Of a stretch of 64,000 nucleotides of DNA, positions 5,008 through 59,717 are shown piece by piece. The notes beneath the pieces are model-generated. The model was given only the letters and a program-made list of their open reading frames with translations. It was not told the origin of the DNA and did not search any database. This DNA is from an uncultured Gammaproteobacteria bacterium. Its GTDB lineage: Bacteria > Pseudomonadota > Gammaproteobacteria > JAURND01. The translations under genes were made by a program, and so were the position numbers. Numbering within the stretch: the stretch's first letter is position 1; every line of letters begins with the position of its first letter. The DNA lies in the NCBI GenBank assembly GCA_963714975.1, contig CAVQQD010000002.1, positions 896,001 to 960,000 of the forward strand. The letters are read 5' to 3'.

Positions 5008-5012
5008 AGGAA

Positions 5013-6735: not shown

Positions 6736-6793
6736 TACACACAAGGGATTATTCTGTCCCCTACGGGTGTAATTGCTTAAATATTTTCACGCT

Positions 6794-37720: not shown

Positions 37721-40700
37721 TCAAAAACTAATCTTCTCAAGAATATTATAATGATGACAATCCAGTTCGTAGATTTTGAAATGCCTAACATAATTGTCTA
37801 GATTATTAGCGATTGTATCAACATAATATTGGTGGATCTTAAAATTAAAATCAATTGCTTCCTGAGAACTGTCTGGATTTATATTTTTTAACTGGGTATG
37901 GTCAACCCTAATATTAGCTTTAATTAATTTAATCTCTGTACCTTCGAACAATCCACTACAGCCCTTGGGATCATATTTATAGTTAATATCTTGATAAACT
38001 TCTTTAGGAATATTCATATCTTTACAAATATCATGAATTGCTTTTTTATAGTTAAAATAAGAATCTAATAAAATTAATTTACTAACTGCATGGCCACTTT
38101 GTTTCAATTGCCGGGTTATTTCAAATGCCAAGACGCCACCAAAACTCCACCCCAAAAAATTATAGGGCCCTTTAGGTTGAATTTTCTGTAATTGCAAAGT
38201 GTAATATTTAGCTAATTCTTCAAAAGTCAATTTACTTTGTAATAACTGATTGTCTTTTACATGATGTAAAAAATTATTAAAAATAACCAGTTTTTTATTT
38301 TTAAACTTTGGCAATAAATGATTATAGTATGACTCAGCGCCTCCATGTCCCGGCGGAAAAATGAATAACGGATCTTCATTAACATCTTCATTAACTATTT
38401 CAAATGGAATAAAATTCGCAAAATCGCTTTGGGTATTTTCCTGCTCGCCGTCTCTAAGTACAGTAATGCAATGCTTGATTATATTTTTCAAATGATACTC
38501 GAATCGAATTGTAACGAGCCGAGTTATTTTTTTGCCAAGTCGTGTCACAATATTAAAATGTAATTGTCCTTCTGAAACATAACCGCTAATATTAATAAGT
38601 GTACTATCCTGGTTATCTTGATGCATGCTTAATCCCGAATCATCCAATGATATTTGCCAATCTCCTTCCTGCTTATCAAATTGCCCTAAATAATTAAACC
38701 TAATGGGCGGTAGTTTATTAAAAGCAATTGAGCTATTCTCCACCACACTAAAACTGCCATAACCTAATCCTTTATGCGGAATTAATCTTAAGCTTTCTTT
38801 AATATGCTTGATGCTTGCTCTGACCGTATCCTGTAATTCTAACTTCACAGGATACATAATGGTGAACCAACCCACGGTGTAAGAATGATCAATGCTTTCA
38901 TCAATGTGTTCACGGCCATGTCCTTCTAAAGTAATTCCATTAACAGTAGATCCTTGCCAGTCTTTTAAGGCATAAGCCAATGCGGTTAATAGCAAATCAT
39001 TAATCTCCGTGTGGTATGCCTGATTGGCTTTTTGTAACAATTGTTGGGTTATGGTCTTCGGTAGTTTAATCTCTCCTAGCTCTGGTTCATAAATTTCACT
39101 TCTTGAATAATTAGGCAACGAATCTAAAATGCCGTTCCAATAATCAGCTTCATGTTTATGACTCAAGTGATATAGTTCAACTACCTTGACCCACTGACGA
39201 TAACTACTAGCTTTGTTACCTAACACTTCTCCCTTATATAGCCTATGAATATCGTCAGCCAATATTCTCCAGCTGACCGTATCGACAATTAAATGATGCA
39301 GAGCAAAATAAATTCTTGCACTACCATCGGGATAACCTGAAATATAACCTATTTGAAATAATGGACCCTTTGCTAAATCAAATTCCGATTGCCATAAAGT
39401 TAATCGTTGATTAATTTGCTCACTACTCTGATGATTGATTTGCAATCTTTTTAATCCTGAAAATGAGATATTTCTTTGATAAGATTGCGACCACTTATTT
39501 TCTTTTTGATTAAAAATCACCCGGAGAATATCATGCTGCTCGACTAGTTTCTCTATACACGACTCTAATTTATCCTCATCTAATTCAGGAACTCTAATCA
39601 GAAAACTTTGATTCCAATGCCAAGGTCGTTTAAATTTATCTGTAGAAACCTGATCAAAAAACCATTGTTGAATTGGTAATAAATCAAATGTTCCTTCCAG
39701 CAATCCTTGCTCACGCTGAATTTTTAGCGACGGAGTTGTGCTTTCTAATAAATATTGCGCCAGCTTCTCTACGGTACGATGTATAAATATATCTTTCACA
39801 CCACAGTTAATATTTAATTGACGTAGTCGAGAGCTTAACTGAATGCTTGAGATTGAATCACCACCTAACCGAAAGAAATCATCGCCTATGCTAATCTTAT
39901 CAACTGGTAACCCAAGCACTGCTGCATAGACCTCACTTATTTGTTTTTCCAATTCATTGCGTGGAGCAATATAATGATCTGCGCTAACAAATTCAGGGTC
40001 GGGTAATGCTTTTCGATCCAGCTTGCCATTGATGGTTAATGGCAATTTATCCAGCCAGACTAAAGCACTGGGGATCATGTAGTCTGGTAATTGCTGAGAC
40101 AGATAATTAAGCATAGCATTGTGATTTAGTGATCTATCTGCTACATAATACCCAACTAAATATTTATTTCCAGTGGGTAAGCCGCTTTCATTTAAGTGTT
40201 CTCTAGCCAACACCGCGGCCTGCTTGATTTCTGGATAGCTAGACAGTTTAGCTTCAATTTCACCCAACTCAATGCGGAATCCTCTAATTTTTACCTGGAA
40301 ATCATTCCTGCCAATGTATTCAATATTACCATCAGCTAAATAACGCACTAAATCACCGGTTTTATATAAATGGGCATTCTTGTTAGTCGCCTTTTCTTGC
40401 TCCGTTTGAAATGGATTAGCAATGAATTTTTCAGCCGTTAATTCCGGCAAATTCAAATAACCACGCGCTAAGCCAGCTCCACCTACATACAGTTCACCTA
40501 TTGCACCTATGGGCAATGGATTGAGACCAGCATCCACTATATAAATGTTCTGATCCGGAATTCGTCTTCCTATATATGAATTATTTCCTAAGTCTTCTGC
40601 TGCAATGGGCTTGTAAGTTACATGAACTGTTGTCTCAGTTATTCCATACATATTCACTAATAGCGGCTTGGTATAGCCATAAACATCGAACCACGGTTGT

Positions 40701-43700
40701 AATTGCCAGAAATTTAAGGCTTCACCAGCAAAAATAATATATCTGAGGCTGCTTAGCTGATGAGGAGCCGATATTGCTAAATCAATAAATTGATAAAAAA
40801 CACTGGGCGTTTGATTTAAAACAGTTACCCCGTGTTGCTCACAAAGTTCATAAAATAGTTTAATGTCTCTGGTCTGCTCATAACTGGGTATCAACAATTT
40901 ACCGCCATGACATAAGGCTCCCCACATCTCCCAGACGCTAACATCAAATACATAGGCATGAAATAGTGTCCATACATCCTGGCTATTAAAGTGATACCAG
41001 TCATCGGTTGCCAACAACAATCGATGCACATTATTATGCTGCTGCAATACACCTTTGGGTTGGCCCGTAGTTCCGCTGGTATAAATTACATAGGCTAGAT
41101 TGGTACTGTTGATATGCTGCGGCAAATTAGTTTCTTGATAGGCATTTAACTTACTTTGTAATTCATCGCCATCAATCGCTTCGATATGCGTTGCTAAAGC
41201 ATGTTTACTTATGATGTCAGCAAGACGTGCTCGATATATTTCATTAGTTAAACATAGTTTTGCAGCCGTATCTTCTAAAGCATAAGTGATACGTTCATCA
41301 GGATAACGAGGATCCATCGGCACATATGCCGCGCCAGCTTTTAAAACTGCTAAAATGGCTATGAGCATTTTTTCACTGCGATCTAGGCATAAAGCGATTA
41401 AATCATCCCCTTGAAGCTGATAATGCTGCCGCAGATAATGCGCGAGTTGATTCGCTTTTGTATTGAGTTCACGATAAGTGAGCTGTCTGTTCTCATACAC
41501 CAGGGCAATATGGTCTGGCGTTCTTTCAACCTGTTCTTCAAACAACTGGTGTATCGTTTTATCTGCTGGATAATCTCGCTCGGTTTTATTCCAGTCTAGA
41601 ATTATTTTCTGGTAATCAGCAGCATTGAGATAACTGAGCTCATTTTGTTGTTCCACTCCAATGACTGTGATCTGATAGAGCAATGATTCCAAACAGCTTA
41701 ATAGTGTCTCTATAGTTTTCACACTAAACAATTCAGCTGCATATTTGAGATTGATTTGGATTCGTCCTTCTTGTTCATAGGCGGTAATTGCCAACGGATA
41801 ATCTAACGCTTCCATTCCCTGAAATCCACTCAATTTGAGCAAATGATCTTCCATTTTTTGTGGCACAGGATAATTTTCGTATATAAACAAACTATCAAAC
41901 AATCTTCTTCCTGAAGACTGTAATTTAGCTAGATTGATATCACTATAACTATTCATTTCATTAATTTTATTCTGGAGTATTTTTATTTGCTCTATAATAG
42001 TTTCCTCACCTTCATGATTAACGATCAACGGTAAAGTATTTATATATAGACCCACGGAGCTTTCTATCTCATCTATGGGCAAATTCCGACCTGAAATAGT
42101 TGTCCCAACCACAGTAGTCTGGCTATTGCCATATACACTTAATAATTTATGCCAACTATATTGCAACAAGGCATTAACTGTAATGCCATGCTCATAACTA
42201 AAAGCCTTAATAGACTGATACAAAGATTGCTCAGCATGAACACTGGCTTCAGCTTTATCGACGATGAAACGATACTCCGCTAATTTGATGCTTTTTTTAT
42301 CCAGACGGAGTAACCCAGTTAAGTCAGGATAGTCTATAACCTTGGCTAACTCCATGCGCCAATAGTTTTCACTAGCAAGATGCCTCCTTTGCAAATAAGC
42401 CTGACTTAATAGATACGCCACCTCTTCCTGAATATTTGCCAATATTCGTACTTGCATGGCACTATTCGTTCTATTTGTATACAGTTGCAAATACAAATCA
42501 TGAACAAAGCCCAATAATAAAGGAGTACTCCAGCCATCTAGAATCGCATGATGGCTACTAAAAAGACAGCTATAGCTGGCCTCTCCCTGCTTCAGCAAAT
42601 GTATGCGTAGCAACTGGCCTTGATCTAAGTGATAGCTGTGCTGACGATCATGCACCACTAGCTCATTCATGTAATATTCTTGTTGCTGCGGGTCTTTCGC
42701 ACTGATATCACTATACTGCCAATATAACTCTTGATGCTGATCGATGATTTGTACTAACTTCTCATCCCAGGAAAATCGCAAACGCAAGCTCGGATATTTT
42801 TTCAGTGCTCCTTGCCAGGCCATTCTTAATAACTCAGGTTCCAATGAGTTCTCATAGTTAAATAGAAACTGCACCCGGTACGCGGTATCTGTTTCACCTT
42901 GATTCAGAGCATGATAGATAAATCCCTGCTGTAAACTATTGGCTAAATACACATGCGTAATCGCTTGCTGAGCCTGGATCTTATCTAAATAACTCTGCGA
43001 GATAATGTAATCGATATCACTGGTCGTTAAATAGGCTCTCGGCAAGTCAACTGTATGCTTAATAATCGCGAGTACTTCCCTTTTAAATGCTTCTACCAGA
43101 TGATTCAGATCATTCTGACTGAGCTTAGACAATAGCCCAAAACGCAGCTCACCTTGATAAACTGCACCATTGGCATTAATAATATTATTGTCTATATTGG
43201 CATGGGATACCGCCATACCACTTGGCTCACCGGTAATCATCCAGTTACTTTCATCTTTGCCGCTTGCATCAAATTGACCGAGGTAGTTAAAAGTCACTCG
43301 TGGTAAATCCTGATGGCTATAACCCAGTAAGGCCCCATAACCAATCCCTTTATGTGGAATCCTCCTCAGACTTTCTTTCACCTGTACAATCGATTGAGAA
43401 ATATTCTCCACAGTGGCCAATTTAACTGGATACATCGTCGTAAACCAACCTACGGTATGAGTAATATCAATACCCTGGGCAATTTCTTCACGGCCATGGC
43501 CTTCCAAGGTAATGTAAATGTAATGGATTTCCTGATGCGTTAACTGCGCTAAGGCTCTGCCAAAAGCAGTCAGCAATAAATCATTAATCTCGGTATGATA
43601 GGCGTGACCACTGTCTGCCAATAATTGCCTCGTGCGCTCTTTATCCAAACTCATTTCCGCATAACTTTGGCTATCCTCATTGGGTAATAATGCGATTAAA

Positions 43701-46700
43701 TGACCTTCCTCTGCCGCCAGACCAGATAATTCTTCCTGCCAATAACTCCGCTCAACCATTTGGGTTTCTGCATATACTTGCACTTGCTCAACCCATTGCC
43801 GATAACTTGTTCCCTTTCTACCCAGCAATTGTTCACTGCTTTGCTGCAGGATCTCATCCAGCTTATTATTGCTCTGAGCTATACTGAGTTTTTCGTACAG
43901 TTCGCGTAAATCATGGGCTATAATTCGCCAACTGACTGCATCGACTAATAAATGATGCAGCGCAAAGAAAATTTTTCTACTGCCATCTGGATATCCTTCC
44001 AAATAGCCTATTTGGTATAAAGGCATCTCTGCTAATAATTCAAAATGGCTTTGCCAATCTGTTAACATCTCTTGATATTCAGACGTTGTGAACTCACTGA
44101 CATTGGCATAAGCTAGAATAAGCGCGTCAAAACTTATCGCAGGACTATAATATTGTTGGTAATTACCCGCTGTTGTTAATCGATAATTCAATCTAAAGGC
44201 ATCATGATATTCTATTAATTTAACTAAACTATGCTTGAGTAATTCCTGATCTAACTTGCCGGTCTTGATCAAAAAAGCTTGATTCCAATGACCAGGTCGT
44301 GGATAGAAACCACTACTTACTTGGCTGAAAAACCAGGCCTGAATTGGCAAAAAGTCCACTTCTCCTGATAATACACCATTTTCTGTGAGCAGCTGCTCCG
44401 GTAAATTAGCTGCATTCGCCAGCTGCTCTGCTAATACCTTTTCACAGAGCTTTTCTACCGTCTTATGTGCAAAAATATCTTTAACGCTAATCGTTAACTG
44501 CAACTGCCTGCGTATTCTACTGACCAGCTGAATGCTAATAATACTGTCACCGCCTAACCTAAAAAAATCATCCCGTATACCAACACTTTCTGCCGACAAA
44601 CCCAGCGCCTCAGCGTATATCTCACAAACTTGACGTTCGAGGTCATTGGAGGGCGCTACATAATTTAATACGTCGCTGAACTCAGGATCTGGTAAGGCGT
44701 TTCGGTCTAATTTACCATTGATAGTTAATGGCAATTGATCTAAATAGATCAATACATTGGGCACCATATAATCTGGTAATTGCATACGCAAATAATCAAG
44801 AATGCTATTTTCATCTAATGGATTATTCGCAACGTAATAACCCACAAGATATTTACTTTGATTTTGCGTATGTTCTTTAACCGACACCGTCGCTTGGTTT
44901 ATTTCCGAATAGTTCAGTAGTTTATTTTCAATTTCACCTAACTCAATTCTAAAACCACGGATTTTTACCTGAAAGTCATTTCTCCCCAGATACTCGATAT
45001 TCCCGTCCGGTAAATATCGCGCCAAATCTCCCGTTTTATACAAGCGGGCATTCTTGCCAGCCTTTTTTTCTGTTTCACTTTGAAATGGGTTGATGATGAA
45101 ACGTTCTGCAGTTAAATCTGGAAGGTTCAAATAACCTCGTGCCAAACCTACTCCGCCGATATACAGTTCACCAATTACCCCAATGGGCAATGGCTTAAGA
45201 TCTTCATCTAGGATGTATATCCGAACATTAGTAATCGGCTTGCCGATATCAGTACTCAAATCCTGATTTCTATAGTGATTTAATGTCACATAAACTGTCG
45301 ACTCTGTTGGGCCATAAGCATTTATTACATTTACTTGATTATTTTTATAATACTCCAATATCTCTTTTTCCGTTTTATCCCCACCTACTACTAAAGTATT
45401 CAATAATAGCAAATGATCTAAAGTGAGTAGTGCGGGCGGTATTAGTGCAACATTAATCTTATAAAGATTAATATACTCTGATAATAACTGAACATCTTGA
45501 CGTATAGCATCACTCACTATATGCGTTGTATGTCCATTGATAATAACCGTAAATAACTCCCACACATGTGCGTCAAATACATAATTGGCATAGCACAGGC
45601 ACTTTAAAGCGAAAAGCTTATTTTCGTACTGCCTGGTCAGGCCAAACTCTTTGGCCTGCATTACTGCTAAATTCACCACACTTCTATGTTCAATCATTAC
45701 ACCCTTAGGTTTTCCTGTAGTACCGCTGGTATAGATCACATAGGCCAAATTAGCACTGGTAATAGGCTGTGACAGGTTAGTTCCTTGGTAGGCATTTAAT
45801 TTATTTTGTAATTCATTGCTATCAATCGCTTCGATATGCGCTGATAAAGCATGTTTATTTATAATGTTAACAAGGCGTGCTCGATGTATTTCATTAGCTA
45901 AACACAGTTTTGCGCTGGTATCTTTTAAAACATAAGCGATACGTTCATCAGGGTAACCGGGATCCATCGGCACATAGGCTGCACCTGCTTTTAATACTGC
46001 TAAAATCGTTATGAGCATCTGTTCACTGCGATCTAAGCACAATGCAACTAAATCATCCCCTTGTAAGTGATATTGTTGCTGTAGGTAATGCGCGAGTTGA
46101 TTCGCTTTTGTATTGAGTTCACGATAAGTGAACTGTCTGTTCTCATACACTAGGGCAATATGGTCTGGCGTTCTTTCAACCTGCTCTTCAAACAACTGGT
46201 GTATCGTTTTATCCGCCGGATAGTCTTTATCAGTTTTATTCCAATCTATTATTAATTTATTATAATCTTTTGATAACAAACTGGATTTATAGCTTTTACC
46301 TTCTAATGCCAAATCCAAGTTATAAATAAAATATTTCATCAAATAATTGAGGTAGTCTTCCTCTATAAAATCATCATGCGCTACCAGCGTGATATTAAAC
46401 TCCTCTTCTGCCTTCTGAGAAACGTTTAGCACACAAGGAATATTGGTACGTTCATAACCTTGAAGATCAATAATATCTTCCATTGACTCTTGAAAAATAT
46501 GAAAGTGAACAAAATTATAAGCAAATTTATAAACTTCATGACCCATCATACTTTTAATATAACCATAGGGCATTATTTTATATTCATACAGTCTTAGTTT
46601 TTCTTCAAATATTTGCTCTGTGCTTATTTTATCCAGCTTATATCTAAAGGGAATAGTGTTCAGAAATAAACCAAATAATTTATCACCTCCTTCAAACTCA

Positions 46701-49700: not shown

Positions 49701-52700
49701 TTATAAACTTCATGACCCATCATACTTTTAATATAACCATAGGGCATTATTTTATATTCATACAGTCTTAGTTTTTCTTCAAATATTTGCTCTGTGCTTA
49801 TTTTATCCAGCTTATATCTAAAGGGAATAGTGTTCAGAAATAAACCAAATAATTTATCACCTCCTTCAAACTCAGGACGATTATTGACGACCAGACCTAA
49901 AGTCACATCATCACTATTTAAAAATTGGGACAATGTTTCCACATAGGCATGTAAAAATATTGTGTCTACACCTATAGATAGTTCGCGCGCCATCTTGATC
50001 GCTTTCGAAACTTTATCTCCAGTCAAGCTATGACGGCTATAAAACAAACCGTCTGCTGATTTAGTTTTTGAAAAATTCCAATTGATGCTTGGCAGTTCAA
50101 CATCTCGTAAGTAATCTTTCCAAAAATTAATATTATCGACATCTTTGATTGCATTTTGTTCATCCTTAACAAATTCTCCATAGCTAATTGAAAATTCCGG
50201 GGATTCTATTGTTAAGTTATGCACATATTCCTGAACAAACTCATTAATTAACGAAGCCACACTCCAGCCGTCGGTTATTGCATGATGAAATGAAAATATT
50301 AGATCAAATCCATCATCTAATTTATTGACCAGTAACCTGAATAATCCAAACTCTGTAAAATCAAAATTATGAACTCTCTCCTGGGCAATCAATGAGTCTA
50401 CATTTTGATTTTCAAATAATACATAATCTTTGGTCAATGTCTTGGCTATTTCCACGTTATAGCCGGTGCTCACAGTTAAAAATCTGGCGCGTAGTAACTC
50501 ATGCTTTGCGATAAGTTTATTCCATACGGATAAAAACTTATCACTTTCAAAATTACTCGATAATTTATAAGAGAAAACATCATGATAGGCACCATATTCA
50601 TCCAACTCGGATTCCAATAACATGCCCATTTGTAAATAACTGGCGGGATAGGAATCTTCGACGATATCAAAGTCAATTTTCGCCAATTGCGCGGCGGTTA
50701 AAAAACTGAACTTCGTATAGGTCTCTCTCAAAAAAGGCGCTTCATGAATACTCGATTGAATCAGATCAGATAATCTTCCTACTGTTTTTTTATTAAAAAT
50801 ATCTTTAACTTTAACTGCGCTATTTAAAGCAGTATTTATTTTACTGACCAATCTAATAGCAATAATACTATCGCCACCCAACCTGAAGAAATTATCATTA
50901 ATGCCCACCTTCTCTACCGATAAGCCCAGTACTTCGGCATATATTTTACACAGCATATGCTCTAAATCATTGCGCGGTTCTACATAATTCAATTCATCAC
51001 CAAACTCTGGATCCGGTAATGCTTTCCGGTCGAGTTTGCCATTGATCGTTAATGGCAGTTGCTCTATATGCATTAATACATTGGGAACCATATACTCAGG
51101 TAATTGACTATGCAGATAACCAATAATATCATCTGCTGCTAAAGGCCTTGGCGCCACATAATAGCCTACCAGATATTTACTCTGATTTTCCTGATGTTCT
51201 CTTGCCAACACAACTGCTTGTTTTATCTCAGGATAACTCAGCAATTTATTTTCAATCTCGCCCAATTCAATCCTATATCCACGGATTTTTACTTGAAAGT
51301 CATTTCTACCGATATACTCGATACTTCCATCTGGTAAATAACGCGCTAAATCTCCAGTCTTATACAAGCGCGCATTTTTTCCTGTCTGCTTTTCCGCTGC
51401 ACTTTGGAAGGGATTTGCAATAAATCGTTCTGCTGTTAAATCGGGAAGATTTAGATAACCGCGCGCCAAACCTGCACCACCTATATACATCTCGCCTATT
51501 GCCCCCATTGGCAATGGATTGAGACCAGCATCCACTATATAAATGTTTTGATCCGGAATTCGTTTTCCTATATATGAATTATTTCCTAAGTCTTCTGCTG
51601 CTATGGGCTTGTAAGTTACATGAACTGTTGTCTCAGTTATTCCATACATATTCACTAATAGCGGCTTGGCATAGCCATACACATTGAACCAGGGTTGTAA
51701 TTGCCATAAATTTAAGGCTTCACCACCAAAAATAATATATCTGAGGCTGCTTAGCTGATGAGGAGCTGATATTGCTAAATCAATAAATTGATAAAAAACA
51801 CTGGGCGTTTGATTTAAAACAGTTATCCCGTGTTGCTCACAAAGTTCATAAAACAGTTTGATATCTCTGGTCTGCTCATAACTGGGTATCAACAATTTAC
51901 CGCCGTGACATAGGGCTCCCCACATCTCCCAGACGCTAAAGTCAAATACATAGGCATGAAATAGTGTCCATACATCCTGGCTATTAAAGTGATACCAGTC
52001 ATCAGTTGCCAACAACAATCGATGCACATTGTTATGCTGCTGCAATACACCTTTGGGTTGACCCGTAGTTCCGCTGGTATAAATTACATAGGCCAAATTA
52101 GTATTGGTAATAGGTGATGAGAGGTTAGTTCCTTGGTAGGCATTTAATTTATTTTGTAATTCATTGCTATCAATCGCTTCGATAGGCGTTGATAAAGTAT
52201 GTTTATTTATGATGTCAGCAAGACGTGCTCGATGTATTTCATTAGCTAAACACAGTTTTGCGCTGGTATCTTCTAAAATATAAGCGATACGTTCATCAGG
52301 ATAACCCGGATCCATTGGCACATAGGCTGCTCCTGCTTTTAATACTGCCAAAATCGCTATGAGCATCTGTTCACTGCGATCTAAGCACAATGCAACCAAA
52401 TCATCCCCTTGCAAGTGATATTGTTGCTGTAGGTAATGTGCAAGTTGATTTGCTTTAGCATTTAATTCACGATAGCTTAACTGCTGATCTTCATAAACCA
52501 CTGCAATATGATCTGGAGTTCTTTCAACCTGTTCTGCAAACAGTTGATGAATGGTTTTATCTGCTGGATAGTCTTTATCAGTTTTATTCCAATCATATAT
52601 TAATCTGTCAAAATCTGCGTTTGAAATCAATTTAAGCTGATTGAAGCCACGATTAATATTATTCTGTTCTAAACTATTTAAAATAAATTGGTAGGTTTTA

Positions 52701-55700
52701 AAAATACATGCAACAGTTTCTTTATCATATATATCTACTAAATAGCTGATATTAAAGACAACCTTGTCCGCATACTCCTTGGCAAAAACTGATATTCCAA
52801 ATTTCTCAGAATTATTTGAATCCAGTAGTTTACTAATATCCATGTTTATATTAACTTCGTCAGTGCCTTTGAAATTATGCATGGTAAACATAATTTGCAT
52901 CAACTCAGCGACTTCTTCTCCTTTCTTCGGAGATAAATTAACGATGTTATTTAAATTGATATCTGCATATTGATTTAAAAATATAATTTCATCGTTTACC
53001 TTGCGCAGGTTATCTAATATTGTGTCCTCAGAAGAGTAATCAAACATCAATGGCAGCGCACTAACAAATGGACCTAAGGCTTTTATAAAATCATATCTGC
53101 GATTAGAAACAGTAATGCCGATAGGAAATTTTTCATCATTAAAATTATATTTATCGAGAACATGATAGAAAATAGTCAAAAATAGTGTGTATAAGCTAAT
53201 ATCATTATTCGTTGATAACTGTAGCAATTTCTCCATTCTCAATGTGGAGATTTCAAAAGTAAAATTCTCTCCAACATTATCAGAACTATCTATAGTTATT
53301 TTGGACAGCTGGATAGGCTGTGCTTTGTTGAATTTTACTAGTAGTTTATTTATGGCAACATTATAGTCTGCCGTTTGTAATAAGGCATACTGATGGGGGA
53401 TATAATCTAAGTAATCAAATTTAGAAGCCTCGGGTATATCTACACCTTCTTTAATTTTATTATAGTTATCTAAAAGTTCAGCTATTAATAATTCAACTGA
53501 TTGGGCATCCGTTAGAATATGATGATGAGTCAAATTTAAAATAATATCGTGGCCTTTATCTATGATCGCTATCTCAGCACAAATTAACGAACCACCATCT
53601 AATCTAAAAATATAATTGGCGCTCACATTGGCATATTCAGCTACCTCCTCTTCTCTAAGATAGACTTTTCGTATTAATATCTCTTCAAATGATAATTTAT
53701 AATGAGATTTATCGATTAGTCGAATTTTTAAAATTCTATTATTCAAAAAGAGAAATCTTATGGCTTCTTCAAAAACATCAACATCGACATCACTTATTCT
53801 CAACAATACCGGAACATTGTAAGTTGTTGGCAGGGCATCCAAATTACTTTGAATATATATAGCATTTTGTATATTTGAAATTCTATTATCATTAGCTAAC
53901 AGTTCATCTGATATTTTGAAAATATTGATCGGTTTATGCTGTTCTCCACTGGATTCTAGCAGCAGCGTAATATGATTGGATAGAGATTCTACACTTCTAA
54001 ATTGATAAAAATCTTCGAGCTTTACTTCGGTAAATTCCTTGGATAATCGAGAAGCTGCTAGCATTGCTGCTAAAGAATTGCCCCCTAATTTAAAGAAATC
54101 GTCTCTTATTCCCACTTTGCTCGTTGGCAAACCCAGCGCTGCTGCGTATACCTCGCAAAGTTTATGGTCCAAATCATTGCGAGGCGCTATATAGGTGAAT
54201 TTAATGCTGGACTCTGGTTCAGGCAAAGCTCGTAAGTCCACTTTTCCATTGATGGTCAATGGCAACTTATCTAGACGAATTAATATGCTTGGTACCATGT
54301 AGTCTGGTAGCTGACTATGCAGATAATCAAGAATAGCATTTTCTTCTAATTGACTATCGGCGACATAATAACCGATTAGGTACTTATTACTGTTATCTTC
54401 AGCATGATGTTCTTTAGCTATCACCACAGCTTGCTTTATTTGTGGATAATTGACCAATTTGCTTTCGATTTCACCTGGTTCAATTCTCAAACCATGAATT
54501 TTTATCTGAAAGTCACTTCTGCCAATAAATTCTATATTTCCATCAGGCAAATAGCGGGCTAGATCCCCCGTCTTATATAACCTAGAATTCTTACTCGCTT
54601 TTTTTTCTACTTCGGTTTGGAAAGGATTAGTAATAAAACGTTCCGCAGTTAAATCTGGAAGATTCAAATACCCGCGTGCTAAACCAATGCCACCGATATA
54701 TAACTCTCCTATTGCCCCCACTGGCAAAGGATTGAAATTTGGGTCCAGGATGTATATCGTAATGTTGGCAATAGGTTTTCCAATATTGGTATTTAAATCA
54801 TCACCTTTGTAATGATTTAACGTGGCACAGACAGTTGATTCCGTGGGCCCATAGGCGTTTATTATGTTTATTTGATTATTCCTATAGTGCTCTAATAGTC
54901 TTTTTTCTGTTTTTTCTCCCCCTATTATTAAAGTACGTAGCGGCAATAAGCTGTCAATTGTTAATATTGCTGGAGGTATAGTTGCTATTTTAATCTGATG
55001 GAGATTAATATAGTCCGATAATAATTCCATATCGTGAAGTATACTATTTTTCACTATATGGATAGTATGTCCATGGGTTATAACGGGAAATACTTCACTG
55101 ACATGAACATCAAATACACAATTGGTATACCATAAGCTATGAATTGATGATCGGGTGTCTTGGAATTGCGTGGATAAATCAATCTCTTGGGCTTGTGCAA
55201 TTAGCAAATTTGTTACGCCTTTATGGGCAATCATCACCCCTTTTGGCTTTCCTGTCGTTCCACTTGTATAAATCACATAGGCTAAATTAGCGCTCAAAAT
55301 ATTTTTAACTGGGTTAGTCTCTGAAAAAGGTTTCAACTTTTTCTGTAACCCATGACTATCGATAGCTTCTATCTCAGTTGTCAATTGGTGATGATTGATG
55401 AAATTCGCAATTTGATCTTGATATATCGCATTCGTTATTACTGCCTTTGTCTCAGTATCCTTTAAAATATAAATAATACGCTCTTCAGGATAGCTTAGAT
55501 CTATTGGCACGTATGCCGCACCAGCCTTTAATACGGCCAAAATTGCTATTAACATATATTCGCTGCGGTCTAGATACAAAGCAATTAAATCATCCCCATG
55601 AATAGTATATTTTTCACGTAAATACTGCGCGAATTGGTTTGCTTTGGCATTAAGTTCGTAATAGGTAAGTTGCATGTCTTCATAGATCATCGCGACATGG

Positions 55701-56212
55701 TTTGGCGTTCTCTCTACCTGCTCTTCAAATAATTGATGGATGGTCTTTTCTTCCGGGAATTCTTTATTGGTTTTGTTCCATTCATAAACTATTTTTTGGT
55801 AATCCTCAGGCGATAATAATTCCTCTTTTTTTATAATTTCTTCTTCATAGGTCTTCGTGGAAACTACCGGCCAAGAGGAATAATGGCCTTGAGATAGCGT
55901 AATAACAGCGTCAACTAAGGTTTCAATTTCTACTTCATTTAATGAACCTCCGCTCAGTTCATATCCTTCATTTTCATCCTTAAACAGTATTATGTTATTT
56001 TTCGTGCATAAAACAGCTTTATTGCTGTTATCTTTATTTTTTTTTATCCATTTGAAAAAATCATTTACATCAAAAAATAGAATATAGTCATAGGTATTAG
56101 CAGTATCATCAGATTTTAAAGAGCTAATTTCATGGCCTAAGATATTTATTTCTTCTATAAACTCATCTATAGCTTTAAATTCCCCTAAAAATTTTAATTT
56201 AAGTGTTTTCAT
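37721..56212 (-). CDS. Five-module non-ribosomal peptide synthetase (A-T-C-A-T-C-A-T-C-A-T-E-C-A-T-E-TE)
   Basis: Five YTSGTTG.PKG A domains; T domains GG(N/D)S; C motifs HHILTDAQS, HHAITDGWS x2, HHAILDGWS; E motifs HHL.VD.VSW/EGHGRE/TVGWFT x2; TE GWSFGG. Confidence 0.97.
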   Translation of the reverse strand: MKTLKLKFLGEFKAIDEFIEEINILGHEISSLKSDDTANTYDYILFFDVNDFFKWIKKNKDNSNKAVLCTKNNIILFKDENEGYELSGGSLNEVEIETLVDAVITLSQGHYSSWPVVSTKTYEEEIIKKEELLSPEDYQKIVYEWNKTNKEFPEEKTIHQLFEEQVERTPNHVAMIYEDMQLTYYELNAKANQFAQYLREKYTIHGDDLIALYLDRSEYMLIAILAVLKAGAAYVPIDLSYPEERIIYILKDTETKAVITNAIYQDQIANFINHHQLTTEIEAIDSHGLQKKLKPFSETNPVKNILSANLAYVIYTSGTTGKPKGVMIAHKGVTNLLIAQAQEIDLSTQFQDTRSSIHSLWYTNCVFDVHVSEVFPVITHGHTIHIVKNSILHDMELLSDYINLHQIKIATIPPAILTIDSLLPLRTLIIGGEKTEKRLLEHYRNNQINIINAYGPTESTVCATLNHYKGDDLNTNIGKPIANITIYILDPNFNPLPVGAIGELYIGGIGLARGYLNLPDLTAERFITNPFQTEVEKKASKNSRLYKTGDLARYLPDGNIEFIGRSDFQIKIHGLRIEPGEIESKLVNYPQIKQAVVIAKEHHAEDNSNKYLIGYYVADSQLEENAILDYLHSQLPDYMVPSILIRLDKLPLTINGKVDLRALPEPESSIKFTYIAPRNDLDHKLCEVYAAALGLPTSKVGIRDDFFKLGGNSLAAMLAASRLSKEFTEVKLEDFYQFRSVESLSNHITLLLESSGEQHKPINIFKISDELLANDNRISNIQNAIYIQSNLDALPTTYNVPVLLRISDVDVDVFEEAIRFLFLNNRILKIRLIDKSHYKLSFEEILIRKVYLREEEVAEYANVSANYIFRLDGGSLICAEIAIIDKGHDIILNLTHHHILTDAQSVELLIAELLDNYNKIKEGVDIPEASKFDYLDYIPHQYALLQTADYNVAINKLLVKFNKAQPIQLSKITIDSSDNVGENFTFEISTLRMEKLLQLSTNNDISLYTLFLTIFYHVLDKYNFNDEKFPIGITVSNRRYDFIKALGPFVSALPLMFDYSSEDTILDNLRKVNDEIIFLNQYADINLNNIVNLSPKKGEEVAELMQIMFTMHNFKGTDEVNINMDISKLLDSNNSEKFGISVFAKEYADKVVFNISYLVDIYDKETVACIFKTYQFILNSLEQNNINRGFNQLKLISNADFDRLIYDWNKTDKDYPADKTIHQLFAEQVERTPDHIAVVYEDQQLSYRELNAKANQLAHYLQQQYHLQGDDLVALCLDRSEQMLIAILAVLKAGAAYVPMDPGYPDERIAYILEDTSAKLCLANEIHRARLADIINKHTLSTPIEAIDSNELQNKLNAYQGTNLSSPITNTNLAYVIYTSGTTGQPKGVLQQHNNVHRLLLATDDWYHFNSQDVWTLFHAYVFDFSVWEMWGALCHGGKLLIPSYEQTRDIKLFYELCEQHGITVLNQTPSVFYQFIDLAISAPHQLSSLRYIIFGGEALNLWQLQPWFNVYGYAKPLLVNMYGITETTVHVTYKPIAAEDLGNNSYIGKRIPDQNIYIVDAGLNPLPMGAIGEMYIGGAGLARGYLNLPDLTAERFIANPFQSAAEKQTGKNARLYKTGDLARYLPDGSIEYIGRNDFQVKIRGYRIELGEIENKLLSYPEIKQAVVLAREHQENQSKYLVGYYVAPRPLAADDIIGYLHSQLPEYMVPNVLMHIEQLPLTINGKLDRKALPDPEFGDELNYVEPRNDLEHMLCKIYAEVLGLSVEKVGINDNFFRLGGDSIIAIRLVSKINTALNSAVKVKDIFNKKTVGRLSDLIQSSIHEAPFLRETYTKFSFLTAAQLAKIDFDIVEDSYPASYLQMGMLLESELDEYGAYHDVFSYKLSSNFESDKFLSVWNKLIAKHELLRARFLTVSTGYNVEIAKTLTKDYVLFENQNVDSLIAQERVHNFDFTEFGLFRLLVNKLDDGFDLIFSFHHAITDGWSVASLINEFVQEYVHNLTIESPEFSISYGEFVKDEQNAIKDVDNINFWKDYLRDVELPSINWNFSKTKSADGLFYSRHSLTGDKVSKAIKMARELSIGVDTIFLHAYVETLSQFLNSDDVTLGLVVNNRPEFEGGDKLFGLFLNTIPFRYKLDKISTEQIFEEKLRLYEYKIMPYGYIKSMMGHEVYKFAYNFVHFHIFQESMEDIIDLQGYERTNIPCVLNVSQKAEEEFNITLVAHDDFIEEDYLNYLMKYFIYNLDLVLEGKSYKSSLLSKDYNKLIIDWNKTDKDYPADKTIHQLFAEQVERTPDHIAVVYEDQQLSYRELNAKANQLAHYLQQQYHLQGDDLVALCLDRSEQMLIAILAVLKAGAAYVPMDPGYPDERIAYILEDTSAKLCLANEIHRARLADIINKHTLSTPIEAIDSNELQNKLNAYQGTNLSSPITSTNLAYVIYTSGTTGQPKGVLQQHNNVHRLLLATDDWYHFNSQDVWTLFHAYVFDFSVWEMWGALCHGGKLLIPSYEQTRDIKLFYELCEQHGITVLNQTPSVFYQFIDLAISAPHQLSSLRYIIFGGEALNLWQLQPWFNVYGYAKPLLVNMYGITETTVHVTYKPIAAEDLGNNSYIGKRIPDQNIYIVDAGLNPLPMGAIGEMYIGGAGLARGYLNLPDLTAERFIANPFQSAAEKQTGKNARLYKTGDLARYLPDGSIEYIGRNDFQVKIRGYRIELGEIENKLLSYPEIKQAVVLAREHQENQSKYLVGYYVAPRPLAADDIIGYLHSQLPEYMVPNVLMHIEQLPLTINGKLDRKALPDPEFGDELNYVEPRNDLEHMLCKIYAEVLGLSVEKVGINDNFFRLGGDSIIAIRLVSKINTALNSAVKVKDIFNKKTVGRLSDLIQSSIHEAPFLRETYTKFSFLTAAQLAKIDFDIVEDSYPASYLQMGMLLESELDEYGAYHDVFSYKLSSNFESDKFLSVWNKLIAKHELLRARFLTVSTGYNVEIAKTLTKDYVLFENQNVDSLIAQERVHNFDFTEFGLFRLLVNKLDDGFDLIFSFHHAITDGWSVASLINEFVQEYVHNLTIESPEFSISYGEFVKDEQNAIKDVDNINFWKDYLRDVELPSINWNFSKTKSADGLFYSRHSLTGDKVSKAIKMARELSIGVDTIFLHAYVETLSQFLNSDDVTLGLVVNNRPEFEGGDKLFGLFLNTIPFRYKLDKISTEQIFEEKLRLYEYKIMPYGYIKSMMGHEVYKFAYNFVHFHIFQESMEDIIDLQGYERTNIPCVLNVSQKAEEEFNITLVAHDDFIEEDYLNYLMKYFIYNLDLALEGKSYKSSLLSKDYNKLIIDWNKTDKDYPADKTIHQLFEEQVERTPDHIALVYENRQFTYRELNTKANQLAHYLQQQYHLQGDDLVALCLDRSEQMLITILAVLKAGAAYVPMDPGYPDERIAYVLKDTSAKLCLANEIHRARLVNIINKHALSAHIEAIDSNELQNKLNAYQGTNLSQPITSANLAYVIYTSGTTGKPKGVMIEHRSVVNLAVMQAKEFGLTRQYENKLFALKCLCYANYVFDAHVWELFTVIINGHTTHIVSDAIRQDVQLLSEYINLYKINVALIPPALLTLDHLLLLNTLVVGGDKTEKEILEYYKNNQVNVINAYGPTESTVYVTLNHYRNQDLSTDIGKPITNVRIYILDEDLKPLPIGVIGELYIGGVGLARGYLNLPDLTAERFIINPFQSETEKKAGKNARLYKTGDLARYLPDGNIEYLGRNDFQVKIRGFRIELGEIENKLLNYSEINQATVSVKEHTQNQSKYLVGYYVANNPLDENSILDYLRMQLPDYMVPNVLIYLDQLPLTINGKLDRNALPDPEFSDVLNYVAPSNDLERQVCEIYAEALGLSAESVGIRDDFFRLGGDSIISIQLVSRIRRQLQLTISVKDIFAHKTVEKLCEKVLAEQLANAANLPEQLLTENGVLSGEVDFLPIQAWFFSQVSSGFYPRPGHWNQAFLIKTGKLDQELLKHSLVKLIEYHDAFRLNYRLTTAGNYQQYYSPAISFDALILAYANVSEFTTSEYQEMLTDWQSHFELLAEMPLYQIGYLEGYPDGSRKIFFALHHLLVDAVSWRIIAHDLRELYEKLSIAQSNNKLDEILQQSSEQLLGRKGTSYRQWVEQVQVYAETQMVERSYWQEELSGLAAEEGHLIALLPNEDSQSYAEMSLDKERTRQLLADSGHAYHTEINDLLLTAFGRALAQLTHQEIHYIYITLEGHGREEIAQGIDITHTVGWFTTMYPVKLATVENISQSIVQVKESLRRIPHKGIGYGALLGYSHQDLPRVTFNYLGQFDASGKDESNWMITGEPSGMAVSHANIDNNIINANGAVYQGELRFGLLSKLSQNDLNHLVEAFKREVLAIIKHTVDLPRAYLTTSDIDYIISQSYLDKIQAQQAITHVYLANSLQQGFIYHALNQGETDTAYRVQFLFNYENSLEPELLRMAWQGALKKYPSLRLRFSWDEKLVQIIDQHQELYWQYSDISAKDPQQQEYYMNELVVHDRQHSYHLDQGQLLRIHLLKQGEASYSCLFSSHHAILDGWSTPLLLGFVHDLYLQLYTNRTNSAMQVRILANIQEEVAYLLSQAYLQRRHLASENYWRMELAKVIDYPDLTGLLRLDKKSIKLAEYRFIVDKAEASVHAEQSLYQSIKAFSYEHGITVNALLQYSWHKLLSVYGNSQTTVVGTTISGRNLPIDEIESSVGLYINTLPLIVNHEGEETIIEQIKILQNKINEMNSYSDINLAKLQSSGRRLFDSLFIYENYPVPQKMEDHLLKLSGFQGMEALDYPLAITAYEQEGRIQINLKYAAELFSVKTIETLLSCLESLLYQITVIGVEQQNELSYLNAADYQKIILDWNKTERDYPADKTIHQLFEEQVERTPDHIALVYENRQLTYRELNTKANQLAHYLRQHYQLQGDDLIALCLDRSEKMLIAILAVLKAGAAYVPMDPRYPDERITYALEDTAAKLCLTNEIYRARLADIISKHALATHIEAIDGDELQSKLNAYQETNLPQHINSTNLAYVIYTSGTTGQPKGVLQQHNNVHRLLLATDDWYHFNSQDVWTLFHAYVFDVSVWEMWGALCHGGKLLIPSYEQTRDIKLFYELCEQHGVTVLNQTPSVFYQFIDLAISAPHQLSSLRYIIFAGEALNFWQLQPWFDVYGYTKPLLVNMYGITETTVHVTYKPIAAEDLGNNSYIGRRIPDQNIYIVDAGLNPLPIGAIGELYVGGAGLARGYLNLPELTAEKFIANPFQTEQEKATNKNAHLYKTGDLVRYLADGNIEYIGRNDFQVKIRGFRIELGEIEAKLSSYPEIKQAAVLAREHLNESGLPTGNKYLVGYYVADRSLNHNAMLNYLSQQLPDYMIPSALVWLDKLPLTINGKLDRKALPDPEFVSADHYIAPRNELEKQISEVYAAVLGLPVDKISIGDDFFRLGGDSISSIQLSSRLRQLNINCGVKDIFIHRTVEKLAQYLLESTTPSLKIQREQGLLEGTFDLLPIQQWFFDQVSTDKFKRPWHWNQSFLIRVPELDEDKLESCIEKLVEQHDILRVIFNQKENKWSQSYQRNISFSGLKRLQINHQSSEQINQRLTLWQSEFDLAKGPLFQIGYISGYPDGSARIYFALHHLIVDTVSWRILADDIHRLYKGEVLGNKASSYRQWVKVVELYHLSHKHEADYWNGILDSLPNYSRSEIYEPELGEIKLPKTITQQLLQKANQAYHTEINDLLLTALAYALKDWQGSTVNGITLEGHGREHIDESIDHSYTVGWFTIMYPVKLELQDTVRASIKHIKESLRLIPHKGLGYGSFSVVENSSIAFNKLPPIRFNYLGQFDKQEGDWQISLDDSGLSMHQDNQDSTLINISGYVSEGQLHFNIVTRLGKKITRLVTIRFEYHLKNIIKHCITVLRDGEQENTQSDFANFIPFEIVNEDVNEDPLFIFPPGHGGAESYYNHLLPKFKNKKLVIFNNFLHHVKDNQLLQSKLTFEELAKYYTLQLQKIQPKGPYNFLGWSFGGVLAFEITRQLKQSGHAVSKLILLDSYFNYKKAIHDICKDMNIPKEVYQDINYKYDPKGCSGLFEGTEIKLIKANIRVDHTQLKNINPDSSQEAIDFNFKIHQYYVDTIANNLDNYVRHFKIYELDCHHYNILEKISF
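46218..52594. repeat. 3174-bp tandem duplication of an A-T-C unit within the NRPS
   Basis: Constant 3174 offset (46218/49392; identical shadow ORFs 47302/50476 and 47974/51148). Two amino-acid differences seen. Confidence 0.93.
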
Positions 56213-57147
56213 TATTCACCACTTTTTTGAAGTAGCCAATTTTTTTCTTTTAGCTTAGGGGAAGTGAATTTATCAATTAAACCTGCTCTATCTAATTGAA
56301 TAAGAATGTTTTTAAGTAATGGGCTATCTTTTGTTAATCTGAAGTCCTTATAGGTCTCTTCTAACATAGAAGTTGCTTCATTTTCCAAAAAACCTAATTG
56401 AAGTAGTATTTGTCTCTCGAATTCCATTTGGACTTGCACACCTAAATATAACTCTAGAAACGATGGCAATATATTGGCAATATTTTCCTTATATGCATCA
56501 GAAATGTTCTTCCAAATATATTTTAATAAGTGAAAGAAAATTCCAGAATGTCTAGCTTCATCTGACAAATGATCGTTTAGCATTTTTTGAAAGAATGGAT
56601 GTGTTTCACTTTTAGCTGTCATGCTAACAATTTCTTTAGTCAGCGTATTTTCAGCTAAACAAACAGCGATCAAGTCAAATACTCCATGGTATTTGTTTGG
56701 TAGTTTTTCTTTTACGGTTTTCATTGCTCTTTCTATTTCGATAGTCTTTGGCAATGGCAATGGTGCAATATTAGTATTTTTTTCAATTTGCAGCATGCAA
56801 TCATATGCAACATAGGCATGATAGGATTCATCAACCATAATGGTATACAGATTAAGTTTTTGCTCTTCAGAAAACTCAATTGGCAAGGTATTAGTAACTA
56901 CAGTTAGAATTACATTATTCACCACTCTTGTTTCTATCACAGCAATATCATTAGAATATTTGTAAAAAGATTGGGTAAGCAAGTAATTGAGCGCACCATT
57001 ACCTTTCTCCAGTATTTTTGGATGAACTGCTAATGGTTGCTGAGAAATAGGCAAAAAATAGCCTTTAGTGGTAGCGTCAAAGACGATTCGTGGCCTGCTC
57101 CTCACACTAGAGCGTTTTTCCCATTTATCTTGTATCTTATGTTCCAT
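56212..57147 (-). CDS. AurF-family diiron N-oxygenase (PvfB/HamC-like)
   Basis: WEKRSSVRSRPR, IE, VDESYH, LAENTLT, DHLSDEARH diiron ligands. TAA overlaps the NRPS ATG. Confidence 0.88.
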   Translation of the reverse strand: MEHKIQDKWEKRSSVRSRPRIVFDATTKGYFLPISQQPLAVHPKILEKGNGALNYLLTQSFYKYSNDIAVIETRVVNNVILTVVTNTLPIEFSEEQKLNLYTIMVDESYHAYVAYDCMLQIEKNTNIAPLPLPKTIEIERAMKTVKEKLPNKYHGVFDLIAVCLAENTLTKEIVSMTAKSETHPFFQKMLNDHLSDEARHSGIFFHLLKYIWKNISDAYKENIANILPSFLELYLGVQVQMEFERQILLQLGFLENEATSMLEETYKDFRLTKDSPLLKNILIQLDRAGLIDKFTSPKLKEKNWLLQKSGE

Positions 57148-58369: not shown

Positions 58370-58436
58370 AGGGAAATCCTTGCATCTGAATAGAGAGAGG
58401 CTAAAGTTTTGGCTGATTATAAACTGATTAGCCACA

Positions 58437-58724: not shown

Positions 58725-58782
58725 TAAACAGCTCCTGATTAATATGTTTATATTGCATATTGCCAATTACAATTGGCGGCCA

Positions 58783-58915
58783 GGAGCTAAACACCGTAAT
58801 CAGAACGGCGGACTAATTTCCTCTTCAGGTATTGTATTCGTCCACTCCCAGCCATGGGCTAGGCAAAAAACCGTATCTAACAGGACGGTTACCGCTGATT
58901 AGTGTGTTTAGCACC
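58783..58915 (-). ncRNA. Structured leader resembling phage c4/Ash-type antirepressor regulatory RNA
   Basis: Terminal inverted repeat GCTAAACAC..TAATCAG / CTGATTA..GTGTTTAGC, internal GAATACAATACC. Upstream of a Bro-N operon. Confidence 0.4.
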
Positions 58916-59646: not shown

Positions 59647-59690
59647 AAAAAAAGCCAGAACCCCCCCCTATTTTACTGGAGATCCTGGCC
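59647..59690 (-). terminator. Intrinsic terminator of ssrA
   Basis: GCCAG...CTGGC hairpin followed by a T-run on the minus strand. Confidence 0.6.
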
Positions 59691-59717
59691 TTCTCTGGAC
59701 ATCTTAAGATTGAAACT

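Follow-up and report, generated by a model that had tools for sequence, protein, structure and literature searches.

The operon

A two-gene operon of about 19.4 kb, encoding a small oxygenase and a large nonribosomal peptide synthetase (NRPS), is located on the minus strand of a 64,000-nucleotide (nt) stretch of DNA from an uncultured gammaproteobacterium of the JAURND01 lineage (assembly GCA_963714975.1, contig CAVQQD010000002.1, positions 896,001 to 960,000). This whole stretch is called the window, and positions are counted from its first letter. Its list of open reading frames (ORFs) has the two genes side by side, one of 311 amino acids (aa) and the other of 6163 aa (Table 1). On the coding strand their junction reads GGTGAATAATGAAA, where the TAA stop codon of the oxygenase and the ATG start codon of the NRPS overlap by one A (TAATG). 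An earlier note on this DNA, made from the letters alone, had described the same two frames and the same overlap at 56212, and the ORF list and the junction letters bear this out. The NRPS frame is 18.5 kb long, is uninterrupted and has all of its core motifs intact. Together the two genes form a co-translated operon, which lies on a horizontally acquired genomic island. Orphan NRPS clusters are common; the enzyme types of this one are known, two of its parts (the Asp-clade condensation domains and the arrangement of the oxygenase with a formyltransferase-like, or F-like, loading region) are unstudied variants, and its product is likely new.

The oxygenase

The small protein is a diiron oxygenase of the AurF/CmlI class. 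It matches the AurF family PF11583 in Pfam with 55.1 bits (cut-off 29.6), and a phmmer search of the PDB sequences matched it to AurF (3chh, E 2.8e-07). Seven of its residues, E72, E107, H110, E166, H193, E197 and H200, align with the metal-binding motifs of AurF. This set of four carboxylates and three histidines does not vary among 27 aligned homologues. The AlphaFold model of the protein (pLDDT 92.9) matches the folds of CmlI (5hyh, TMq 0.77, TMt 0.83) and AurF (2jcd, TMq up to 0.79) with E values of about 1e-7, and its matches to other diiron classes, including ribonucleotide reductase R2 and the desaturases, have E values of 0.015 or higher and TM scores below 0.5. The class assignment follows from the profile match, the seven aligned invariant ligands and the ranking of the folds, and it agrees with the diiron oxygenase proposed from the letters. 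The protein is not AurF itself, because it scores 38 bits against the NCBIfam equivalog model of AurF, the cut-off of which is 620.

A CylC-type halogenase was considered as another identity for this protein, from PMC8406957. In a local copy of Pfam, in which a CylC-like model was not confirmed, the protein matches only AurF even at E 10, which weakens the halogenase reading. Its atlas neighbours are AurF-family clusters; the cluster at rank 11 has a CylC-like share of 11%.

The peptide synthetase

Pfam, applied to two overlapping halves of the NRPS, found five AMP-binding, five PP-binding and seven Condensation-type stretches and one Thioesterase. In the motif map the order is an N-terminal extension, A1-T1, C2-A2-T2, C3*-A3-T3, C4*-A4-T4-E4, C5-A5-T5-E5 and TE, with A, T, C, E and TE denoting adenylation, carrier, condensation, epimerisation and thioesterase domains. 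The two methods agree on five modules with E domains after the fourth and the fifth, the architecture given in the earlier note. The ten code positions of the A domains were taken from an hmmalign alignment of all A domains, anchored on the A2 motifs of this protein itself. They read DVSTIGAVCK, DFWNIGMVHK, DFWNIGMVHK, DAWLVGAVYK and DVWNIAMVHK for A1 to A5, letter for letter the codes that had been read by hand. DFWNIGMVHK, the code of A2 and A3 and already taken there as a Thr code, is listed among the Thr- or dehydrobutyrine (Dhb)-activating domains in PMC12283262.

The A1 code shares eight of its ten positions with DASTIAAVCK, the code of a Brasilonema locus. Residue 1 is presumably Tyr-like, going by this code. 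A5 has 84.6% identity to A2, which activates Thr, and two of its code positions are different; its substrate is probably Thr-like.

C2 has a best PDB match of only 44.7 bits, with its HHHILTD active site kept, a divergence that would fit an unusual donor. C5 matches the N-terminal C domain of McyB (161.9 bits), bacitracin synthase 3 (147.3 bits), PvdL (144 bits) and TycB (102 bits), all of which we take to be of the DCL type, and it scores 80.5 bits against McyA and 35.3 bits against AmbE. Judged by these matches C5 is a normal DCL-type domain, as expected directly after E4.

Table 1. Features of the operon, its island and the insertion site (positions in the window)
Feature	Position	Strand	Basis
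AurF/CmlI-type diiron oxygenase, 311 aa (P0002)	56212..57147	-	PF11583, ligand alignment, fold
Five-module NRPS, 6163 aa (P0001)	37721..56212	-	ORF, Pfam, motif map; ATG overlaps oxygenase stop
N-terminal domain, ~135 aa, formyltransferase-like fold, probably degenerate	55808..56212	-	Fold searches
Loading module A1-T1, DVSTIGAVCK, T1 serine in LGGNSL	53963..55759	-	Motif map, code alignment
C2, very divergent condensation domain, active-site HHHILTD	52613..53905	-	Motif map
A2-T2, Thr code DFWNIGMVHK	50753..52570	-	Code alignment
C3*, Asp-clade relative of dehydrating CmodAA domains	49403..50680	-	Alignments, tree
A3-T3, copy of A2-T2	47573..49396	-	Self-comparison, code
C4*, copy of C3*	46229..47506	-	Self-comparison, tree
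A4-T4-E4, DAWLVGAVYK, E motif HHLLVD	43043..46222	-	Pfam, motif map, code
C5 (DCL type)-A5-T5, DVWNIAMVHK	39743..43015	-	PDB matches, code
E5 (HHLIVD) and terminal thioesterase (GWSFG)	37724..39715	-	Pfam, motif map
Tandem duplication of A-T-C unit	46218..52594	-	Self-comparison at 3174-nt shift
tmRNA gene, island insertion site	59718..60078	-	ARAGORN; Rfam RF00023, 196 bits
Right direct repeat: tmRNA 3' 196 nt + 71 nt	59647..59913	.	blastn
Left direct repeat, tmRNA remnant	36879..37142	.	97% identical to right; Rfam partial tmRNA, 67 bits
Bro-N family gene	57515..58435	-	PF02498

Condensation domains that follow the threonine modules

The condensation domains after the two Thr modules, C3* and C4*, had been assigned in the earlier note to the dehydrating CmodAA clade by the strings YHDVFSY and SFHHAITDGWSVASL, and both strings are present in both domains. 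Against the PDB sequences C3* scores 174.2 bits with McyA and 96.9 bits with the CmodAA domain of AmbE, and at most 70.7 bits with ordinary C domains. The active site of C3* and C4* reads HHAITDG, in which the HHxxxDG motif is intact, and the code upstream of each is DFWNIGMVHK. CmodAA domains are described as having a helix motif, [K/R]SVLLAAH, before motif C5, with K/R in 50 of 50 and His in 48 of 50 analysed domains, and an Arg at the start of motif C6 in 96%; mutation of Arg in AmbE is reported to lower its activity (PMC11342130). Aligned to McyA and AmbE, C3* reads DTIFLHAY at the helix motif, with Asp in place of K/R and Tyr in place of His, and the Arg-Arg pair of C6 reads Lys-Ile. The CmodAA assignment thus stands as regards the likeness to McyA and AmbE and the position in the tree described below, and falls as regards the K/R-His signature and the C6 Arg.

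The replacement is found throughout a group of domains. A search of 1.84 billion representatives with C3* gave 39,464 hits, the best 150 proteins were kept and every C domain in them was re-scored. At 180 bits or more to C3* there are 65 domains with D (61), E (3) or N (1) at the K/R site and never K or R; a Ser/Thr A domain precedes 31 of the 45 for which this could be determined. The 58 domains at 100-180 bits have K (41), R (8), Q (7), S (1) or N (1) at the site, and 34 of 52 follow a Ser/Thr A domain. Below 100 bits the site is occupied by various residues in 337 domains, and 27 of 188 follow such a module. The share of upstream Ser/Thr modules is therefore 69% in the Asp clade, 65% in the canonical range and 14% in other C domains, against a background of Ser/Thr codes on 119 of the 538 A domains in the same proteins. 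Of 63 Asp-clade domains, 50 have K and 9 have Q at the C6 Arg position.

A FastTree phylogeny was calculated with 138 domains: 40 with Asp, 35 with K/R and His, 15 others with K/R and 45 random others, plus C3*, C4* and C5. All 40 Asp rows form one clade with C3* and C4* (support 100), a clustering that is partly built in because both the residue and the similarity to the query served to pick these rows; the reference rows were recognised by their motifs, not their names. Sister to the Asp clade is a clade of 40 rows, 34 of them K/R-His rows (joint support 89). Both belong to a superclade of 95 rows (support 99), which leaves out C5 and 42 of the 45 random others. C3* and C4* are thus placed in the CmodAA superclade and not with ordinary LCL or DCL domains, the outcome expected from the earlier note; within the superclade they are, by this tree, members of a separate Asp clade and not canonical CmodAA domains.

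The Asp clade and the query have the blocks YPASxLQxGML, YH[DN]V, SFHHAIxDGWS, GLFLNTxPxR and FN[YF]xHFH in common. The clade has marks of its own, D-x-[IV]-F-L-x-x-Y and [YH]-K-x-x-P-Y, and it shares YHDVF, SFHHAIxDGWS, GLFLNTxPxR and FNxxHFH with McyA. Compared with the CmodAA set of McyA C2, AmbE, AlbB, Crz1-C2 and module 3 of marinocyclin, C3* and C4* are alike in superclade, in their position after a Thr module, in HHxxxDG and in having YHDVF as in McyA. They differ from that set in DTIFLHAY and Lys-Ile, changes that set apart a clade of 65 or more domains.

What these domains do can be judged from their relatives in part. In marinocyclin, a CmodAA domain in module n+1 is described as collinear with Dhb at position n (PMC13676389). 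We conclude that C3* and C4* act on Thr-ending donors and, somewhat more likely than not, dehydrate the Thr. Dhb-Dhb is a prediction and not a family assignment, because the signature residues are replaced and there is no characterised name among the ten closest proteins. The domains could instead be adapted to Ser/Thr-ending donors without dehydrating them, so that Thr-Thr is kept or the side chain undergoes another reaction. Some CmodAA-clade domains are reported to catalyse conjugate addition, pyrimidine formation or pyrrolizidine formation (the corallorazine paper, PMC11342130), and the loss of the basic residue, of His and of the C6 Arg throughout the 65 domains would fit such a change, as would the ten closest Asp-clade proteins, which when looked up were from uncultured sources with generic names, none of them characterised. 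The sister relation to the K/R-His clade within the superclade, the four blocks in common with McyA and an upstream Ser/Thr association as strong as that of the canonical clade argue for dehydration, and leave its absence as the less probable, if serious, alternative.

Two further observations concern the A domains around such C domains. The codes DVWNVAMVHK and DVWNIAMVEK, which are close to that of A5, occur upstream of K/R-type CmodAA-like domains in the proteins P0209 and P0123, so that a pocket of the A5 type may also load a beta-functionalised residue. An unfamiliar code, DVSYIAYIYK, recurs with close variants immediately after Asp-clade C domains, in six or more proteins (P0088, P0092, P0095, P0205 and others).

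The oxygenase and the loading module

The oxygenase family is sparse: it was found in 2 of 61 related genomes and in 8 of 400 genomes sampled from the class, both counts including the genome studied here. A large protein collection has 81 homologues, the best of them 91% identical, and the named sources are Fischerella, Francisella philomiragia and Shewanella. A locus search over species-representative genomes gave 33 loci with an oxygenase alignment and no relative with a single-sequence query. The ORFs of each locus were scored with the domains of this NRPS. The oxygenase is at least 33% identical in 26 loci (25 of these and L002, from the related genomes) and 24-32% identical in 8 more; L085 and L086 are identical over their shared part and hence not independent.

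In 18 of the 26 loci the oxygenase gene is immediately followed on its own strand by, or is fused to, an NRPS that starts with an A domain. Five more have an NRPS nearby in another arrangement, one has none and two are on contigs that are too short. Among the eight loci at 24-32% identity an NRPS was found in none. A second, class-wide sample had a downstream A domain in three of seven further loci, at 45, 33 and 32% identity. In Legionella quateirensis (L098, 9917-12694) an oxygenase homologue with 41% identity and the A and T domains are in one open frame. The coupling of the oxygenase to the loading module, proposed before from the TAATG overlap, is thus matched by adjacency or fusion in related loci.

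The NRPSs of these loci often begin, as here, with a small extra domain. The first 135 residues of the NRPS match no Pfam family at E values up to 10. They align with the N-termini of nine other oxygenase-linked NRPSs at 19-30% identity, and in the ten homologues M1, L4 and S107 are invariant and G26, H27 and I104 nearly so. The first A domain begins at residue 142-168 in the loci with an oxygenase at least 45% identical, and at residue 4-6 in three more distant loci (L100, L101 and L002). The model of the domain (pLDDT 76) has as its top Foldseek match the F domain of LgrA, the linear gramicidin synthetase, with E 0.008 and TMq 0.41-0.46. The same F domain is at the top of a VIA-align search of 48,161 chains, with a root-mean-square deviation of 4.9 over 130 residues and Z 8.3, where Z values of 7-8 are common for unmatched models; the best eight rows of that search all have the formyltransferase fold. 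The domain is probably a shortened, inactive formyltransferase-like domain. Like the LgrA initiation module (F-A-T), the NRPS would have a formyltransferase-fold domain before its loading A domain. The match is weak, and the present domain differs in its length of about 135 aa, against residues 1-178 covered in LgrA, in its few invariant residues and lack of a Pfam match, and in its association with an oxygenase gene in place of a known formyltransferase role. A complex prediction for the oxygenase and this domain gave scores of 0.00 and 0.00, with controls not run, and speaks neither for nor against binding.

The combination of AurF-like oxygenase, F-like domain and A-T is common to Legionellales, Francisella, a Rickettsia, Neisseriales and cyanobacteria. 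The codes of the first A domains across the oxygenase loci are diverse: DASTIAAVCK, DASTVAAVCK, DAWTIAAVCK, DAFWIGGTFK, DFWNIGMVHK and several that are unrecognised. We take DASTIAAVCK and DASTVAAVCK to be codes for Tyr, DAWTIAAVCK for Phe and DAFWIGGTFK for Val. Since the starter codes differ while the pairing with the loading module persists, the feature shared by the substrates would be the free alpha-amine of the starter, and the oxygenase most simply acts on this amine.

A different target, such as an aryl or side-chain amine, a carbon to be hydroxylated or the released peptide, can be set beside this. The solved relatives AurF and CmlI oxidise arylamines, with only 16-18% sequence identity to the oxygenase, and the complex prediction gave no answer. 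LitN, also AurF-like, may oxygenate the nitrogen of an amide that has already been formed (PMC10616846), and the timing of N-oxidation in althiomycin biosynthesis is stated as unclear (PMC3445576). The gene is however tied to the loading module in most related loci, once by fusion to A-T; the starter codes range from aromatic to Val and Thr; no gene for the biosynthesis of an amino-aryl amino acid is among the ORFs of the island; and a free alpha-amine is present on the first residue only. A target other than the T1-bound alpha-amine is quite unlikely on these grounds. The specific case of an arylamine, p-aminophenylalanine, was set aside as unlikely, for the starter codes vary across the loci and the island has no such biosynthetic genes.

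In L083, L085/L086, L088 and L091, from Brasilonema, metagenome-assembled genomes (MAGs) of Francisellaceae and Legionella, and Francisella spp., the second module has a Cys-type code similar to DLYNLSLIWK. Such Cys-coded second modules recall the oxime-thiazoline start of althiomycin. At L103 the oxygenase and loading cassette is in a Candidatus Rickettsia genome. A literature search found no paper that joins Francisella, nonribosomal peptide synthetase and N-oxygenase, and among the papers on Legionella, nonribosomal peptide synthetase and diiron enzymes none was, by title and abstract, on this system.

Relation to known N-oxygenases

The nearest precedent for an N-oxygenase that feeds a multimodular assembly line is, by analogy, althiomycin. 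Its oxygenases Alb2 and AlmD (318 and 317 aa) are AurF-like and essential for althiomycin, and are proposed to form the oxime at the N-terminus, probably while the intermediates are bound to a line of six modules (PMC3445576). As here, an AurF-like oxygenase of about 317 aa is described in one operon with a multimodular NRPS that opens with an A domain (PMC3445576). The analogy drawn earlier, to PvfB and HamC, holds; the althiomycin system, a published precedent with a multimodular NRPS, had been absent from it. The althiomycin line (Alb4/Alb5, or AlmA/AlmB) has features of its own, namely a Gly starter, two Cys heterocyclisations, a polyketide synthase module, a methyltransferase, an exporter of the major facilitator superfamily and a type II thioesterase. 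The present operon, which is without accessory genes, has a predicted Tyr-like starter, a CmodAA-like C domain after each of its two Thr modules, and a pair of E domains.

In the pvf (Pseudomonas virulence factor) cluster the diiron N-oxygenase is PvfB (PMC10194917), and HamC, of the Burkholderia ham cluster, is reported to oxidise L-Val tethered to HamD (PMC11659414). Both are described as AurF-homologous enzymes that act on a carrier-tethered amino acid of an adjacent NRPS, as is proposed here, and their clusters have further genes, pvfA and pvfD (hamA, hamB and hamE; PMC11659414, PMC10194917). None of these genes is in the island. The present NRPS has five modules and ends in a TE, so that an oxidised residue would have to pass through four further modules. 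PvfC and HamD consist of one A-T-R module each and release small signals derived from aldehydes. The likeness to Alb2/AlmD, PvfB and HamC is one of published descriptions and not of compared reference sequences.

A recent module duplication

One A-T-C unit of the NRPS is tandemly duplicated with a period of 3174 nt, giving modules 2 and 3. The copies at 49392-52594 and 46218-49420 have two mismatches in 3203 nt (gene nt 3619-6821), and their borders are in the C-A linker. The near-identity indicates that the unit was duplicated very recently.

The copy number was compared with public short assembled (Logan) contigs, which gave seven pieces of 151-159 nt from four runs; the best DNA run has 0.26 of the sampled words, and no RNA run was listed. 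No piece bridges the C3*-to-A3 junction with the letters of the reference. Position 49392 is crossed by one contig, from run X2, and its letters are those of the junction between C4* and A4. That there are two copies, and hence a pentapeptide and not a tetrapeptide, is taken from the assembly only. If the assembly were wrong there might be one Thr A-T-C unit, or more than two, and the locus might also be an unproductive, decaying acquisition. A 3203-nt stretch with two mismatches is hard to assemble and the sole public contig at the junction position does not have the expected letters; there is no integrase, transporter or regulator among the island ORFs of at least 96 aa that were scanned, and fragments of Bro-N and tmRNA genes mark rearrangement. 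The 18.5-kb frame is however open with every core motif intact, the genome was assembled in three contigs, and the two positions that differ mark the copies as distinct sequences. Assemblers in general tend to collapse repeats rather than create them. Misassembly or decay is, on balance, very unlikely.

The island and its host

The operon is on a genomic island at the 3' end of the gene for transfer-messenger RNA (tmRNA). Direct repeats of 267 nt with 97% identity, derived from the tmRNA 3' end, bracket about 22.5 kb (37143-59646). The G+C content is 0.368 between the repeats, 0.446 at positions 1-33000 and 0.450 at 60085-64000. The ORFs of at least 100 aa within the island are the NRPS, the oxygenase and a Bro-N gene, with one 96-aa ORF that has no Pfam match; an sRNA-Xcc1 match from Rfam lies at 58770-58853. 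No integrase was matched among the ORFs of at least 96 aa, smaller ORFs and pseudogenes being outside that scan. The same Pfam scan agrees with the earlier statement that no transporter, MbtH, phosphopantetheinyl transferase (PPTase) or known resistance gene is in the island.

Fragments of the Bro-N gene were found by blastn at 37144-37268 and 35646-35820. In a relative (G004, L138 13715-14518) a Bro-N homologue with 82% identity adjoins the tmRNA gene, and Bro-N thus seems to travel with, or to mark, the tmRNA site. The tmRNA gene is near ddl in relatives too. Within 15 kb of the tmRNA gene of four relatives none of the left-flank genes of the window was found; only Bro-N was matched, in two of the four.

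The repeat boundaries support the description of a minimal two-gene cluster as far as the island goes. Outside the left repeat, 955 nt past the NRPS stop codon, there is on the minus strand a gene for a 2-oxoglutarate (2OG)-Fe dioxygenase (35833-36765, PF10014, E 2.2e-25, G+C 0.364), which sets a limit on that description. The family includes hydroxylases of free aliphatic amino acids. The enzyme could supply a building block. The dioxygenase, Bro-N and 96-aa ORFs were rejected as members of the cluster, because homologues of them were found at none of the 34 oxygenase loci. Farther left, on the plus strand (34900-35658), a gene for a VanX-like D-Ala-D-Ala dipeptidase scores 212 bits against an equivalog cut-off of 320 and has a lipoprotein-like N-terminus. 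A link between this gene and a peptide predicted to end in two D-residues is speculative.

The host is rich in NRPS genes. Its genome of 2.56 Mb, in three contigs, has 35 C-domain matches (32 over the Pfam cut-off), of which only 6 are in this gene, a load unusually high for that size. The other 29 include matches at C2:232608-253088, C2:1112156-1117219 and C3:741879-751043, and another frame of 6059 aa carries several. This genome does not bear out the earlier picture of a lineage poor in known natural products. A 242-aa frame with the PPTase family PF01648 (G000:C2:871904-872227) is about 24 kb left of the window, and MbtH was not found in the whole genome, which is 93.75% complete. As to the affiliation of the host, its MurC is at most 68% identical to proteins of uncultured Gammaproteobacteria and 53% identical to that of a Legionellaceae MAG.

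A proposed pathway

These features suggest a pathway. The oxygenase would oxidise the free alpha-amine of a Tyr-like residue 1, bound to T1 as a thioester, to an N-hydroxy, oxime or nitro group, and C2 would then extend this unusual N-oxidised donor. C3* and C4* would each condense and eliminate water from the preceding Thr, giving Dhb-Dhb. E4 and E5 would invert residues 4 and 5 and the TE would release the peptide. A PPTase from another part of the genome would prime the carrier domains. The predicted product is (N-oxidised aromatic residue)-Dhb-Dhb-D-Xaa(hydrophobic)-D-Xaa(Thr-like). We put the probability of this whole reading, an N-oxidised, dehydrated pentapeptide with a D,D end, at about one half.

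Several points weigh against it. The CmodAA signature is replaced in C3* and C4*, their closest relatives are uncharacterised, and 14 of the 45 Asp-clade domains follow modules with Asn-, Val-, Cys- or Gly-like codes rather than Ser/Thr modules. The oxidation state of the nitrogen is not readable from the sequence. The substrates of A1, A4 and A5 are tentative, some of the codes being unfamiliar, and these code strings were not found in any paper. The number of Thr modules, as said, is that of the assembly.

A broader proposal joins two unstudied elements. The loading cassette of oxygenase, degenerate F-like domain and A-T would be a dedicated device that equips the starter of multimodular peptides with an alpha-oxime, an N-hydroxy or a nitro group, and in this operon would give a 2-hydroxyimino-aryl N-terminus. 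The Asp clade would dehydrate Ser/Thr by a different catalysis, with an acidic residue where AmbE and McyA have an essential basic one. The D,D C-terminus and the neighbouring gene for a VanX-like lipoprotein hint, in addition, at a peptide that mimics the D-Ala-D-Ala end of peptidoglycan precursors and has its own immunity enzyme. That all of this holds together is doubtful.

Implications

If the proposed pathway is correct, a single five-residue peptide would combine three features that are reactive or rare: an N-oxidised end, a pair of neighbouring dehydroamino acids and a D,D C-terminus. At 19.4 kb the operon is small enough for heterologous expression. The 3174-nt A-T-C copy bears on the rules of NRPS engineering, as a natural and very recent case of module duplication whose defined breakpoints lie in the C-A linker. 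The Asp clade is a natural test of the residues that dehydrating C domains need, since it is without the Arg/Lys marked as important by AmbE mutagenesis. The arrangement of oxygenase and F-like-A-T recurs in host-associated and aquatic lineages with a chemistry that is almost unknown, and one characterised member would annotate the rest.

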